A program made the position numbers and the translations under genes. From the IMG/VR virus record IMGVR_UViG_3300028048_000053, positions 34,692 to 98,691 of that record: 64,000 bases of DNA; one strand, given 5' to 3'. Source of the DNA: a virus. This document shows positions 19,661 through 30,470 of the stretch, piece after piece; position 1 is the stretch's first letter; each line of letters begins with the position of its first letter. A model generated the notes under the pieces. It made no database searches, was not told the origin of the DNA, and saw only the letters and a list, made by a program, of their open reading frames with translations.

Positions 19661-19700
19661 AAAGGCTGGATAGTTTTAACAACTATCCAGCCTTTTTTTA
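19661..19700. terminator. bidirectional rho-independent terminator between convergent + and - gene blocks
   Basis: AAAAAAGGCTGGATAGTT-TTAA-CAACTATCCAGCCTTTTTTT. Confidence 0.7.
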
Positions 19701-20099
19701 TTGTTTAGTCCAGCCGTATACTCCAGGTTCCCAAACATTGTTATCTACGTCACTTATCCAAATATCACCTTGTTCATCTGGATATTTTACTTTGTCGCCC
19801 TTGGCGTAAGCGTCCTGCGCTCCAGTCGGTTGTCTCCAAACTGGTATTGTGCCAGGTTCCGCAACCTCAGTCCATAATGCGGGAGTTGTAGGCGGCTCCC
19901 AACCATCTTGCGCTGTATGTTCCTATTCACAGCGATATAGTTTGTCGCTATAGCGAACTCGAATTCCAACAGCATACCCTACGCCAGGAGTCCATAAGTG
20001 AAACAGCTCAATGGCTTCTAACGCATCTTCGTCTGGTAGACTTATAGCAGCCTTTTCTATCAAAGGCCGCAATTGCCTTGCTCTATCCTGCGGTCTCAT
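19698..20099 (-). CDS. hypothetical protein with a carbohydrate-binding-like C-terminus (one in-frame TAG)
   Basis: ATG overlaps the upstream TGA (ATGA); 134 codons to TAA 19698-19700; ...DGWEPPTTPALWTEV.. Confidence 0.45.
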
Positions 20100-20320
20100 T
20101 CACTCACCCCCATCAGAATATCATAAGCTTCAGCCTTGTCTTCTACGGTGATTTCATCGGGCTCTACAAGCTCATTGGATTCGCTATAGGTGTATGGGCA
20201 GGGCACGACATCTACTGCATCATCATAGAGGATATTCGTTTCGTTCTGCCAAATTTTATAGCCCGCGTCACTCCAATGATGAATACGTTCACCATTTTCA
20301 ATCAGTTCTTCACGAATCAT
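20096..20320 (-). CDS. small tail-fibre assembly/chaperone-like protein (paralog of 21897..22154)
   Basis: MIREEL... ends EDKAEAYDILMGVSE like its paralog; AAGGAGG RBS; sits immediately downstream of a fibre gene. Confidence 0.5.
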   Translation of the reverse strand: MIREELIENGERIHHWSDAGYKIWQNETNILYDDAVDVVPCPYTYSESNELVEPDEITVEDKAEAYDILMGVSE

Positions 20321-20333
20321 ATTTGCGCCCTCC

Positions 20334-21728
20334 TTAGTATTCAACATAGGTATAGGTACTACTGGATGGATAATTTGTTGCGCTGGTATAGGCAGCCAGC
20401 GTGCCAGACGGCACATAAATAACACAGTCGGTGGGTATGCTTGACCAGGTGTTGCGGGATGACGCAGTGGGCGGAGTGGCCGCAACAAAGCGTATGAGAC
20501 GAAGACCGCCACAGGTATAGAACGCACTGCTTCCGATGCTCGTCACACTATCTGGGATTGTTATGCTCGTTAGACAGTAGCAGTTGTAGAACGCACTGCT
20601 TCCGATGCTCGTCACACTATCTGGGATTGTTATACTTGTTAGATTGTAGCAGCAGTAGAACATATTATTCCCAATTCTCGTCACACTATCTGGGATTGTT
20701 ATGCTCGTTAGACTGCAGCCCCCGAACGCACTGCTTCCGATGCTCGTCACACTATCTGGGATTGTTATGCTCGTTAGACAGTAGCAGTTGTTGAACACAT
20801 AGTTCATAATGCTCGTCACGCCGTCCGGAATTGTTATGCTCGTCAAGCTGTAGCAACTGTCGAATGTGTTGGACCCGATGCTCGTCACGCCGTCCGGAAT
20901 TGTCACGCTCGTCAGACTACTGCAGCCCCCGAACGCACTTTCCCCGATGCTCGTCACGCCGTCCGGGATGGTCACGCTCGTCAGACTGCTGCAGCCGTAG
21001 AACGCACTTTCCCCGATGCTCGCGTTTCTGCCGATCTCTACCTTCTGAATGGCATTTTGATATACACGATTAAACTATAAACTTCCGCTGGTCTTCCACA
21101 GCAGTTGAGAGCCGGCGCCGCCTCCAGTAATGCCCAAGCTCCCCGTCACATCGATAGTGATGACATATTTCCCTGGAGCTGGATAGACATGTTGAGTGTT
21201 GATAACGGTGTAGACATCGTTGCCCGTCACGGTATCGGGCTCGCTGTCGTCGCCCCAATCGATCACTGCTGTGCCATTGACAGCTATGCCGAGATAAGGC
21301 TCCAACCGTCCCTCTTCAAGGTGGATATACACCCGTGTCTTGCCATCGTCGGTAACATACATCTGTCCCATCCACAGCTTGCCATACTTCGCCACATATG
21401 CCTGGGCCTTTGCCAACGTCCAGTTCCAGCCTTGCGAAGTCAGCCCCGCGTGGGACGGATTCTCAGGCATCGCCGTAAGCGCCGCAAACTCAGCAGCTGT
21501 ATAACTATGAACAATCGTACCATCGTAGTCGATAAAATTGACATCATTAACCTCAGTTTTGTCACCTCCTCCAGTTGGAACGTTGACAACAACTTCACTT
21601 AGTCCATCATATCCAGCATCTGGCGTGACCGTTCCATTCTGCGTAGTTGTTTTCGTTTGTAGTGTCGCCTGTCCGATGCTGGCGATTGCCGCCGCCATCT
21701 GGGACGGCGTGTAAGTTTGATTAGGCAC
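20334..21728 (-). CDS. tail fibre / receptor-binding protein with C-terminal BspA-type leucine-rich repeats (one in-frame TAG at 21075-21077)
   Basis: GTG 21728 with AAAGGAG RBS; ORFs 21075..21728 and 20334..20975 are in one frame joined through TAG; repeated [22 protein letters not shown]; GC-rich. Confidence 0.65.
20350..20975 (-). repeat. about 8 tandem 69-72 nt LRR-coding repeats
   Basis: Near-identical repeats (GCTCGTCACACTATCTGGGATTGTTATGCTCGTTAGAC...). Confidence 0.7.
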
Positions 21729-21896
21729 TAAATATCACTCCTTTCAAGTCCCTCTGTCGGGCATGGGATGGTGGATCGGGGAGAATAATTTGTGTAATAA
21801 ATTTCAGAATGTCATAGAGTTTGTTGGACATAGTTTTACTCCTCCTCCGGCACGTCCTCAATGTACGGCGAAGCTGTCTCGCTCTGTCCTGCGGTT

Positions 21897-28000: not shown

Positions 28001-28050
28001 ATTTTTTGCCCATTCCGCATATATCGGGCATTCTTAAAATATTGCTCCTT

Positions 28051-29538
28051 TCACGCCCATGTGACCCCACCATCCGTGGTGCTGATGGCGGTTTCCTGCC
28101 CGTAACCGGTTTTTGTGATCAGCGTTGCGTGTCCGATTGGCCCGTCGTAGTTCTCCAGTGTGCGCACGGTGCTGGCACTGCTTCCGTACTGCGCTGTGTC
28201 TGCCTGGACGCTCTGGACATGATCGCCGCAATGCAAATACAACATATTGTACCCGAACGTGTTGCTGTAGCAGCTGTCCCCGAAGGTGTTGCTGTAGCAG
28301 TTGTACCCGAACGTGTTGCTGTTGCAGCCGTTCCCGAAGGTGTTGCTGTAGCAGGAGTCCCCGAAGGTGTTGCTGTAGCAGCCGTACCCGAACGTGTTGC
28401 TGTTGCAGTTGTACCCGAACGTGTTGCTGTAGCAGCTGTCCCCGAAGGTGTTGCTGAAGCAGGAGTCCCCGAAGGTGTTCATCCAGTTGTGCATCCCCAG
28501 CCTGTTTCCGGAGATGTTGTTCCAGCCTTTGGAAGAAAGCTTCGCCGTAAACACGCTGTTGGTCTCCCACACGCTGCCCCCCAGGCCGAAGACGTTATAC
28601 GCGCCCTGCATCATGGCAATCAGTGGTTCCGTCTCCAGCTCGATGTAGTTCTCCCGGCACGGCACCTTGGCAAGCCCGTTGAAGCTGGCGTCAACGTGGG
28701 CGCTCTCATCGGCGTCGTAGTAGTCGAAGGTGTAATACCAATCGGCCCCGAAGGTGCTGAGATACTGCGCGTTCGGTTCCGCAAACTGAATTGCGCCCAG
28801 GATATTCGCGCCTACAGCGAAGTCGTAGTCAGCCACCGCGCTGTCTACGCCTTTGTACTGGTGAAGGTACGGGTTGACGTAGCTCCCGGCGCTCATATAC
28901 GCTTGCAGGGCCGTAAAGAGCTGATACATTCCGCCGTATCTGTTCGGCTGCGTACTGGCGTCATAGGCCAGCTTACCGTCAGCGGGTGGCGTATAGTCCC
29001 CCTGCGCGTCCGCCACCTTCAGCGCATAGCGCAGGAAGCGGATGTTCTTGAAGTCGTATCCCACCCGGTTGTTGAACTCGTCCTCCATCCAGAAGATGAC
29101 GCCCTTTCCGTTGGCGTTGGCCCAGGCGTAAGTGGCCTGGTCGTTGTCAAGGCAGTATTTCAGCTTCCACGCCCCGATGGCGCTGTTGGCGAAATACGTG
29201 TCCCCCTCGTGCAGAGCCGCCCGTGCGTTCTCGTTCAGATGGCTCTCGTCGTCTGCGGTCACAATCACGTCAAAGGGGTGGCTTTCCGGCACCCCCGCGT
29301 TGTGTAGATACCCCTGCGCTCCTAGGGTGCTCAAATCGTAGCTACCTGTGATGACTGTCTCATAGTCCGTAATGCGGTACTACATTCCTGGCACGAGGTT
29401 GCCCCCGTCCCGCAGAGCCTTCAATTCCGCCCAAGTGGTCTCCGTCATAGGCTCCACTGTGGCTGTGGGTGTTTCAACTTTAGTTAGTTCTTTTATTGCA
29501 TTAGCCATCTCAGATGGCTTTAAATTATCAATAGCCAT
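28051..29538 (-). CDS. tail fibre protein with about 12 tandem NTFG(D/Y)(S/N)C(Y/N)S nonapeptide repeats (one in-frame TAG at 29380-29382)
   Basis: ATG 29536-29538 after AAAGGAG RBS; in frame with ORF 28051..29334 across TAG; ends TGA. Confidence 0.65.
28250..28480 (-). repeat. 27-nt tandem repeat array (about 9 copies) encoding the NTFGxxCxS repeats
   Basis: GTTGCTGTAGCAG(C/T)TGTCCCCGAAGGT-like units; other-frame ORF-track ORFs 28034..28570 and 28125..28457 are artefacts. Confidence 0.75.
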
Positions 29539-29553
29539 ATTGTATTACTCCTT

Positions 29554-30255
29554 TCAGGTTCCACTGTCGGTCAGCGGGTGGTGGATGATGGTCAAGGTAG
29601 TTGCGGTTGAATTGGAAATATTAGTTGCGGTCCCATTTGAGGAAAATTTTTTAGCGACGCTAAACGCTCCAGTGTTATCATACTGAATAAAGTATGCAGC
29701 AGACAGAGCAGCACCAAAAACCGTTAAACAGTCACCGCCAAAAAATCCTGCGCTATAACTCAGGAATATTCTAATATTCCACATTCCGTCTTTGAAATCT
29801 ATATACGCCGTTGCATTGTTGTTCTGAATTTCATTTCGTAAAGTGGATATTTTCATACCACCCCACGGATTTGCCACGGTCCCAGTTATTGCCTCCACAT
29901 AGTTCGGATTGCCACCTTCTTCAATATCAACATTCACACTTGAATATGCAATTCCCGATGGAGCAGTATATTTTTTATTCTCCGTAACATTTAGCTCTTC
30001 TAGTACTACAGCATCTGCCTGCTTAATCTCATTAATAGCTTTTGCAATATCTTCATAATATTGCGGATTTGAATTGCCTTTCTCTGGCAAACTACTATTA
30101 CTGCCAAAATACATATTATCCAAGTTTGGTAAAATTAATTCGTCCATTTTTTCGATAAAATCTTTAGAAGTATATTTATCAGTTTCATTTAGCATACTTC
30201 TTAATTTATTACACATAGCTACATAATCATCTTGAGGCATTTTAACAAAACTCAT
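29554..30255 (-). CDS. tail fibre / baseplate-attachment protein (N-terminal domain paralog of 22151..22918)
   Basis: ORF track 233 aa; ends TGA. Confidence 0.6.
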   Translation of the reverse strand: MSFVKMPQDDYVAMCNKLRSMLNETDKYTSKDFIEKMDELILPNLDNMYFGSNSSLPEKGNSNPQYYEDIAKAINEIKQADAVVLEELNVTENKKYTAPSGIAYSSVNVDIEEGGNPNYVEAITGTVANPWGGMKISTLRNEIQNNNATAYIDFKDGMWNIRIFLSYSAGFFGGDCLTVFGAALSAAYFIQYDNTGAFSVAKKFSSNGTATNISNSTATTLTIIHHPLTDSGT

Positions 30256-30470
30256 TACATTCCCACCTCTGCTACGTTGATTTCGTTTTCTGGGTCTTCT
30301 TCATTTAAAGAAATCCACTTATTTACATCCATATAAATATAAACAACTTTATTAGACAAACATAAAACTTTATCTCCAACATTAACTACTTTAGCAGCTA
30401 ATACCAAATCATCTTTTGATATAACTGCATATTCTCCTTTAGATATTTGGACAATATTTTGTATATTCAT
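30255..30470 (-). CDS. small hypothetical protein (71 aa), first gene of the minus-strand structural operon
   Basis: ORF track; ATG 30468-30470. Confidence 0.5.
   Translation of the reverse strand: MNIQNIVQISKGEYAVISKDDLVLAAKVVNVGDKVLCLSNKVVYIYMDVNKWISLNEEDPENEINVAEVGM

Follow-up and report, generated by a model that had tools for sequence, protein, structure and literature searches.

A probable host-range module with exchangeable distal domains in a phage that reads TAG as sense

How does a stretch of phage DNA with a GC content of 38% come to hold a block of fibre-like genes, some of them far richer in GC, and what might that block do? The locus that raises this question spans positions 19698 to 30470 of a 64,000-nucleotide stretch (the window) of IMG/VR record IMGVR_UViG_3300028048_000053 (positions 34,692 to 98,691), which is part of ENA contig ERZ27252073:k141_3465 (171,985 bp) and comes from a phage of gut or rumen origin. 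The initial annotation had described it as a tail-fibre module with paralogous N-terminal anchors, swapped GC-rich receptor-binding domains, small chaperones and possibly phase-variable repeats. Our analysis indicates that the interval is probably the host-range module of a TAG-recoded phage, with distal domains that can be swapped.

When the minus strand of positions 19600 to 30600 was translated with the stop codons marked separately, TAG alone was found to break otherwise continuous frames. With TAG read as sense, the fragments of the initial annotation join into whole genes with homologues: open reading frames (ORFs) of 52 and 427 aa merge into the 495-aa g3, ORFs of 217 and 213 aa into the 464-aa g11, several fragments into the 525-aa g4, and three into the 528-aa g6. 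The gene map first proposed is therefore wrong, its boundaries having been misread because TAG is a sense codon here. In-frame TAG occurs in g3, g3b, g4, g6, g7b, g11, and g13, and a suppressor tRNA with the anticodon CUA is encoded outside the island that it is needed to translate. TAG is most likely decoded as Gln, to judge from alignments and despite the shape of this tRNA. The TAG of g3 aligns with Q in four relatives (P0001, P0003, P0007, and P0014) and with CAG in contigs L027 and L028; the TAG of g13 falls on a conserved Gln site of the CBM_5_12 domain, where contig L012 has CAG; and among sister strains of the same lineage, described below, TAG alternates with CAG twice, with CAA once and with GAG once (CAG or CAA at three of four sites). 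Overall, five of the six comparisons that were informative gave Gln codons at TAG positions. The marks of genetic code 15 are all present: conserved genes with TAG in frame, a CUA tRNA and TAG aligned to Gln. The tRNA itself has a 21-nt insertion in its variable region, like a class II long arm, which was unexpected for a suppressor of the tRNA-Gln type.

Under this code, the interval is a single minus-strand island of about 14 genes, transcribed from right to left, with the following features.

30255-30470, minus strand: g1, first gene of the island (71 aa, 0 TAG)
29554-30255, minus strand: g2 (233 aa, 0 TAG)
28051-29538, minus strand: g3 (495 aa, 1 TAG)
27800-27982, minus strand: g3b, small conserved gene (60 aa, 2 TAG)
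26209-27786, minus strand: g4, conserved fibre (525 aa, 6 TAG)
25086-26207, minus strand: g5, with a TTG start abutting the g4 stop (373 aa, 0 TAG)
23393-24979, minus strand: g6, tail protein (528 aa, 4 TAG)
23117-23299, minus strand: g7, small conserved gene (60 aa, 0 TAG)
22915-23112, minus strand: g7b, small conserved gene (65 aa, 1 TAG)
22151-22918, minus strand: g8, chimeric fibre (255 aa, 0 TAG)
21897-22154, minus strand: g9, small partner protein (85 aa, 0 TAG)
21694-21900, minus strand: scar, a composite of three remnants and not a gene (the 59-aa ORF called "g10" at first)
20334-21728, minus strand: g11 (464 aa, 1 TAG)
20096-20320, minus strand: g12, small partner of the leucine-rich repeat fibre (74 aa, 0 TAG)
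19698-20099, minus strand: g13, small CBM_5_12 protein (133 aa, 1 TAG)
19654-19702, no strand assigned: bidirectional terminator, a perfect 22-bp hairpin flanked by A and T runs, which ends the island and also serves the convergent plus-strand gene
12869-12962, plus strand: CUA suppressor tRNA (ARAGORN; Rfam tRNA, 53.3 bits)

Several details of this map were checked. Read-through of g2 into g3 was rejected, two stops lying between them. Promoter-like sites were no commoner than in shuffled sequence (35 versus 28.6 ± 4.8), and therefore no promoter is claimed. The upstream part of g5 is taken as coding because its differences from four strains fall mostly on third codon positions (e.g., 22 of 27), while in the downstream part all three positions are affected evenly, as would be expected of a distal domain that evolves fast. 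In the public annotation of the contig, a 434-aa ORF on the plus strand (28006-29307), antisense to g3, takes the place of g3; the latter is the real gene, since it has more than 2500 homologues. The opposite strand of g3, which is rich in GC at third codon positions (GC3), gives rise to long spurious ORFs. The locus thus carries a practical warning: the public call swapped g3 for an antisense ORF, and translation in the standard code breaks five genes.

Comparison with related phages revealed how this island varies. When conserved small proteins were looked up by exact match, eight further contigs of this lineage, assembled from different samples, were recovered (L017 and seven more, here called the sister strains); their backbone is 91 to 96% identical. 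In at least four slots (g2/g3, g5, g8, and g11), conserved 5' ends are followed by replaced distal parts. Relative to L017, the window segments without a counterpart are 28049-29860 (the g2 C terminus and all of g3), 25143-25440 (the C-terminal part of g5), 21848-22645 (the g8 C terminus, g9 and 43 nt of a CBM gene), and 19700-21693 (the body of g11, g12 and g13). Residues 1 to 41 of g2 are conserved in all strains and its C-terminal domain is strain specific; in g5, the N-terminal 119 aa are conserved and the C-terminal part is fast evolving. The g3 slot holds a protein with NTFG repeats in the window, another allele of it in L021, an unrelated 339-aa protein in L020, and a 105-aa protein in L022; those of L020 and L022 begin with the first 25 to 29 residues of g3, and the L021 contig ends short of that end of the gene. 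The g8 slot is occupied by a 255-aa protein in the window, a 247-aa protein in L019, and a 532-aa leucine-rich repeat (LRR) protein with a g12-like gene in L021 and L026, while the L020 protein continues after residue 44 as a g11-like body. L021 and L026 also keep the first 55 residues of g11, whose sequence is strain specific from 21693 downwards. From these differing contents behind common starts it follows that the N-terminal parts persist and the distal ones are exchanged. The swap within the g8 gene lies near residue 90: residues 1 to ~90 are native (22646-22918) and residues ~91 to 255 imported (22151-22645). Between g2 and g3, the joint itself could be delimited.

29450-29578, minus strand: junction J1, running from the last g2 codons through the ribosome-binding site to codon 29 of g3, and retained in strains whose sequences on either side of it differ

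A copy of ~45 nt of the g2-end/ribosome-binding-site part of J1 lies upstream of g11. In addition, g7b corresponds to the N-terminal stub of a gene of more than 212 aa in L022 (7016-7651), and this likeness hints at a further, decayed fibre slot.

The origin of two of the exchanged segments could be traced to close relatives. Window positions 21857-22657 match contigs L008 to L011 at 83.5% identity over 816 nt, which there comprise the C-terminal 165 residues of the last tail gene, an 86-aa gene and the start of a CBM_5_12 gene. These contigs carry integrase, tape measure, BppU_N, r1t-type holin, and CHAP endolysin genes, and their combination of integrase, tail and lysis genes identifies them as temperate phages or prophages. 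The DNA of g3 matches L027, a standard-code contig with 60% GC, at 91.5% (29452-28409) and 94.8% (28317-28047). The limits of both matches coincide within ~10 nt with the limits of the strain-specific segments. A more distant relative of g3 (56% identity) immediately precedes the lysis genes of a phage contig with an integrase. Furthermore, relatives of g9 in genomes belong to Clostridia, Eubacteriales, Ruminococcaceae, and Candidatus Enterenecus metagenome-assembled genomes (MAGs), and a genome scan with a close subset of the g9 alignment gave four matches of moderate identity in Clostridia MAGs. No close donor of g11 to g13 was found in IMG/VR, where the best match of g13 had 68% protein identity. 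In L008, the cassette of last tail gene, small gene and CBM gene (7306-8698) has ~50% GC inside a contig of 62% GC; being so far below the rest, it is foreign there too, and cassettes of this kind seem to circulate among phages of different composition.

Composition and substitution patterns support the view that the GC-rich parts are horizontal imports. The GC content is 57% in g3 (GC3, 78%) and 52% in g11, compared with 38% in the window as a whole, and no 800-nt segment exceeds 50% GC outside g11, g3 and one tRNA stretch. The shifts are abrupt, at 28048, 29452, 21848, and 22645. With L028 as a third sequence, substitutions in g3 on the window lineage numbered 25 GC>AT versus 4 AT>GC, compared with 56 versus 38 on the other two lineages (Fisher P value, 0.008), and CAG in g3 relatives has become TAG in the window. 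Among Gln-type codons, TAG accounts for 3 of 40 in imported and 13 of 52 in native segments (P value, 0.05). Together, the nine-strain comparison and the similarity to donors bear out the horizontal exchange of GC-rich distal domains that had been proposed.

Earlier exchanges appear to have left remnants between g9 and g11. The scar at 21694-21900 is made up of a 5' remnant of a CBM gene (21857-21900), a 5' remnant of a Dp-1-type holin gene (21779-21846), and, at ~21729-21775, a 3' remnant of a g2-like gene with the ribosome-binding site of g11. The first 11 codons of "g10" are the start of a CBM gene, and a 91-nt repeat ties "g10" to the g12/g13 boundary; its residues MSNKLYDILKFITQIILP match the start of the Dp-1-type holin of L012 at 14 of 18 residues. 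Since most of the scar (21694-21847) is common to the sister strains at 93 to 95%, it is older than the present cassettes. A similar remnant is seen beside the g3 slot of L017 and L022, where a 49-aa ORF preserves the 5' end of the gene located after the NTFG gene in L027.

The proteins of the island were then compared with known families. The initial annotation had proposed a shared N-terminal anchor in g2 and g8, and a common stretch of 71 residues at 45% identity (E value, 1e-13) is indeed present, but it is not private to them. In g2 it lies in the module of residues 42 to 108 (29933-30132), which the g2 of L017 lacks. A profile of the g2/g8 N terminus against 1.84 billion representative proteins gave 612 matches, full length in only about nine clusters; most cover no more than the last 30 positions, a widespread repeat of the form (I/L)ExLxVTxNGTYTAPxGxAYSPVxVNVP that we call the shaft repeat. 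It has no Pfam model and is found in up to eight tandem copies in proteins with varied ends, LRR_5 among them. IMG/VR scans with g2 and g8 did not find relatives. In g11, an N-terminal peptide (PSQMAAAI) is followed by one shaft repeat, a middle domain and about eight BspA-type LRRs; the LRR_5 match (PF13306; 261.8 bits against a cut-off of 27.7; E value, 1.1e-78), 7.4 tandem DNA units of 66 to 69 nt with 77% matches (Tandem Repeats Finder), and seven TIPD motifs agree with the number of repeats first reported. Two further genes have recognisable tail affinities. The NKP..SDF.ND.GY motifs noted before lie in g4, which matches several tail-fibre PHROG families locally (residues ~384 to 441; E values down to 5e-11) and is 91.5 to 94.9% conserved among strains carrying it whole, and g6 matches phrog_5302, "tail protein," over nearly its whole length (E value, 4e-60). 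Tentaclins carry a C-lectin domain at the N terminus (PMC10743442), and g6 was rejected as a tentaclin on this ground. No PHROG tail family was matched by g2, g3, g5, or g8.

The g3 protein consists of a native 29-aa N-terminal peptide and an imported part (28049-29452) with a globular domain, NTFGxxCxS repeats and a C-terminal cap. The 27-nt tandem array was found where it had been placed (28248-28479; 8.6 copies with 86% matches by Tandem Repeats Finder) and is in frame, encoding nine NTFG units, eight of them with Cys, rather than the dozen first counted. Pfam searches with g3 and two relatives gave no match at E values up to 10, a PDB sequence search with g3 gave none, and tblastn against phages gave a weak repeat stretch in the tail fibre of Clostridium phage phiCT453A as its only match. 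The same search with g8 and a megablast of the whole interval against GenBank phages were negative. In an AlphaFold2 (AF2) model of residues 54 to 495, the globular domain was predicted with confidence (predicted local distance difference test [pLDDT] score, >90) and the repeats were not (<50), and a fold search of the model against BFVD gave no match.

An account of the locus that keeps more of the initial annotation would treat g9 and g12 as dedicated Tfa-type chaperones, one per fibre, and the tandem arrays as devices making the fibres phase variable; we consider it possible but doubtful. Both small genes directly follow fibre genes, and g9 was transferred along with the distal domain that it follows. 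The order of fibre, small protein and CBM protein is conserved in temperate phages; the g9 family, with 48 homologues of g9, is always encountered between the last tail gene and a CBM_5_12 gene. Relatives of g12 follow LRR fibres in L019 and L021 and were found at 18 IMG/VR loci. The C termini of the two proteins are EDKAEGFDILMGVTE and EDKAEAYDILMGVSE, g12 ending in the latter. Their proposed paralogy holds for this shared ending, but the likeness is confined to the last 22 residues (68%): the C-terminal helix is common, and the N-terminal part varies with the preceding fibre. Against the chaperone label, neither g9 nor g12 matched Caudo_TAP, another Pfam family or a PHROG family. The AF2 model of g9 (pLDDT score, 82) shows three strands, a helix, two strands and then a flexible C-terminal helix, and it had no structural match. 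With no similarity to Tfa in sequence or fold, the label of Tfa-like chaperone is unsupported, position and co-transfer being all that speaks for it. The gene that follows, g13, has, with TAG read as Gln, a CBM_5_12 domain (PF02839; 57.4 bits against a cut-off of 26.2), and in temperate phages the CBM_5_12 gene stands between the small protein and the holin.

Phase variation fares no better. The length of the array does differ between close relatives, with nine units in the window and three in L027, exactly six more at ~92% nucleotide identity, but the assembly of a second sample has the same sequence, its contigs simply breaking inside the arrays. Because the arrays are imperfect (86% and 77%) and built of whole codons (units of 27 and 66 to 69 nt), a gain or loss of units alters the length of the protein and is no on/off switch. 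An invertible segment of the Mu Gin or P1 Cin type is not indicated, either. All genes of the island are on one strand, no invertase is found among the called genes of the locus, and no flanking inverted repeats were seen, the only weak ones being unrelated AT-rich matches.

Alternatively, the GC-rich genes could be accessory adhesins or moron-type cargo, such as mucus- or polysaccharide-binding decorations of the capsid or tail, carried along with the fibres. In keeping with this, BspA-type LRRs and CBM_5_12 serve generally in adhesion and carbohydrate binding, no fold relative of the g3 globular domain is known, and the island stands apart from other structural genes, adjoining a large protein with a major vault protein (MVP) shoulder domain. 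We nevertheless think it unlikely. In temperate phage contigs, the g3 family and the g9/CBM pair close the tail module and are followed immediately by the holin and endolysin genes; these positions and the PHROG tail matches of g4 and g6 uphold the proposal of a tail-fibre, receptor-binding module. Moreover, different distal domains follow the same N-terminal parts from one sister strain to another, the pattern seen with host-range determinants, and a neighbouring gene of the same block is the target of a diversity-generating retroelement (DGR; see below). Finally, the suspicion that abrupt shifts of composition in a repeat-bearing metagenomic contig betray a chimera of reads from a GC-rich phage on an AT-rich backbone can be dismissed as highly improbable, because every junction recurs with 100% identity in an independent assembly of another sample, the imported genes contain in-frame TAG and the GC>AT bias, and the junction sequences are conserved in sister strains.

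The DGR, which acts on g6 and is the hypermutation device that does belong to this module, is seen most clearly in the sister strains; like TAG recoding, g13 with its truncated copy and the scars, it had escaped the initial annotation. The last ~134 nt of g6 (~23407-23540) constitute a variable repeat. In two sister strains, L017/L019 and L022, a reverse transcriptase of 343 to 349 aa is encoded between g6 and g7 (L019, 8913-9944; L022, 5744-6793), with an RVT_1 match (E value, 3e-21) and the motifs IGSYLSQ and YADD in the sister-strain protein, and the copy at the g6 end is followed, 187 nt downstream, by a 134-nt template repeat. Between template and variable repeat, 39 of 51 mismatches fall on template adenines over an aligned stretch that includes non-homologous flanks, the rest being almost all in these flanks; between the window variable repeat and the L017 template, the count is 34 of 52 over the whole aligned stretch, flanks included. 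Across eight strains, 31 of 47 template adenines vary, compared with 9 of 93 other positions (P value, 9e-12). Thus, the 3' end of the target gene carries an adenine-specific variable repeat. Within the 64-kb window, no cognate template or reverse transcriptase was found, and the template matches only the g6 variable repeat. The place from which they are missing is the following junction.

23346-23366, minus strand: junction lacking the 1465-nt cassette of template repeat and reverse transcriptase present in sister strains, from strain comparison

This deletion junction is identical in six of eight strains. The window differs from L021 at 1 of 134 positions of the variable repeat despite 3.6% divergence in the flank, and because of this near identity the repeat appears to be frozen in the window strain; L019, which has the reverse transcriptase, differs from L024 at 17 of 41 adenine sites with 4.3% divergence in the flank. 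The strains without reverse transcriptase have this one junction in common, are not monophyletic in the flank, and have variable repeats that differ at template adenines. Since they are not each other's closest relatives, the presence/absence allele was probably moved by recombination. The overall pattern fits either spread of the deletion allele by recombination or a DGR acting in trans during co-infection.

Collectively, these findings point to a host-range module that would operate as follows. The island, one leftward block, would encode at least six fibre-like proteins among g2, g3, g4, g5, g6, g8, and g11. The lineage-specific N-terminal part of each presumably docks on the virion, and most would combine one ~30-residue shaft repeat ((I/L)ExLxVTxNGTYxxxxGxAYSxVxVxV) with a host-binding distal domain. 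Host range would shift through recombination at short conserved joints, namely, the shaft repeat, the g2-end/ribosome-binding-site/g3-start sequence, and the small-gene-end/CBM-start sequence, each event swapping a distal domain together with its downstream small gene. Donors probably include standard-code temperate phages of GC-rich Clostridia, and the imported DNA would then drift toward AT, with CAG codons turning into TAG. The g6 protein would have been diversified additionally by the DGR until this strain lost the template and reverse transcriptase, leaving the variable repeat frozen.

Several observations weigh against this reading. The tail location of these putative fibres is a prediction from sequence; the island sits amid non-structural genes, and no baseplate genes are seen adjoining it. 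Composition and TAG content are the grounds on which the direction of transfer was assigned. With 50% GC, against 62 to 66% in L008, the g8C-g9 cassette is itself poor in GC, and for this reason L008 is not its ultimate source; no close donor of g11 to g13 was found. The g11 gene has also lost the g2-like gene that stood upstream of it. The long variable region of the suppressor tRNA is atypical of tRNA-Gln, and the absence of a reverse transcriptase applies to 64 kb of the 172-kb contig.

If a swappable host-range module is the right explanation, the locus would be a nucleotide-resolution record of a recoded phage acquiring host-recognition genes from standard-code phages, followed by AT drift and new TAG codons. 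It also brings to light three widespread modules without a family model, i.e., the NTFG-repeat distal domain, the 30-residue shaft repeat and the g9-type small partner. Through the cassettes that they have in common, this AT-rich phage is tied to temperate phages or prophages of Clostridia, which gives a testable host prediction, namely, GC-rich Clostridia of the Oscillospirales or Eubacteriales. More speculatively, stop-codon recoding might act as a one-way valve for host-range genes: the recoded phage would keep importing receptor-binding cassettes from standard-code temperate phages of common GC-rich Clostridia hosts, and CAG-to-TAG changes would make these unusable outside the recoded genome. 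Two further suggestions of the same tentative kind are that the NTFGxxCxS family, with its more than 2500 members, may represent an undescribed fibre, a cysteine ladder adjusted in length as 27-nt units are gained and lost, and that g9-type small proteins may be a new class of fibre partner.

Some features outside the island or the lineage are also recorded here. The 16 tRNA genes of the window are arrayed amid small ORFs in its first 14 kb (340-14113); together with the low GC content of the phage and the 60% GC of cassette donors, this array may compensate for host codon usage. Contig L005 (263 kb, 33% GC), in which similar accessory genes (DUF2828 and LAGLIDADG) are present, has one 698-aa NTFG-family gene (8001-10097) on the strand opposite to its neighbours; standard-code translation of this gene does not yield the query, a sign that L005 may be a second large recoded phage with the same fibre family. 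The 818-aa MVP shoulder protein next to the island (PF11978, precomputed; 30798-33254, plus strand) is transcribed away from the fibre genes, 96% conserved in sister strains, and relatively GC-rich (47 to 48%). At ~14900-17360, DUF2828/vWA-type coding sequence is split into genes of 147 and 371 aa by a NUMOD3 homing-endonuclease-like gene, and several endonuclease-like ORFs elsewhere in the window are very rich in TAG (e.g., nine in frame in 55138-55935).

The closest known systems include the modular receptor-binding proteins of lactococcal and streptococcal siphophages, such as BppU/BppL baseplates and the host-range region of S. thermophilus phages flanked by collagen-like repeats. As in the module proposed here, such proteins attach through a conserved N-terminal part, recombine at a short repeat or hinge, and owe their host range to a distal head that can be exchanged; the donor contigs found here even carry BppU_N. 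In the present phage, however, the joint is a ~30-residue shaft repeat without a Pfam model, there are several slots per genome, and the genetic code of the recipient differs from that of the donors. Phages with several fibres and conserved adaptor N termini (SP6/K1-5, CBA120 with TSP1 to TSP4, and Klebsiella phage PhiK64-1) likewise have several receptor-binding proteins per virion, whose genes are neighbours and which dock by conserved N termini but differ completely in their distal domains. Among the distal domains of the present island, which are LRR_5, NTFG repeats and unknown folds, no beta-helix enzyme of the depolymerase type was recognised. As with Tfa of the lambda, Mu, and P2 type (Caudo_TAP), a small gene lies directly downstream and is exchanged with the distal end of the fibre, but g9 and g12 resemble Tfa in neither sequence nor fold, conserving a C-terminal helix and varying N-terminally. 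Phage DGRs such as that of Bordetella BPP-1 Mtd and that of a Bacteroides phage (PMC6199706) offer the same variable repeat at the 3' end of a tail gene, adenine-specific differences and a reverse transcriptase with the IGxxxSQ motif; in contrast, the template and reverse transcriptase are absent from the window, the junction is common to six of eight strains, and the repeat appears frozen. Gut phages recoded from TAG to Gln under genetic code 15 (bioRxiv 10.1101/2021.08.26.457843; PMC9523058; PMC10607447) resemble this one: they carry TAG within the frames of structural and other genes, encode a CUA suppressor tRNA, and have large, AT-rich genomes with many tRNAs. The present phage differs from them in that standard-code imports are seen acquiring TAG and in the 21-nt insertion of its suppressor tRNA. 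The mechanism is therefore of a known kind, modular exchange of receptor-binding proteins together with a DGR, and what is new is the import across genetic codes and the modules for which no family model exists.

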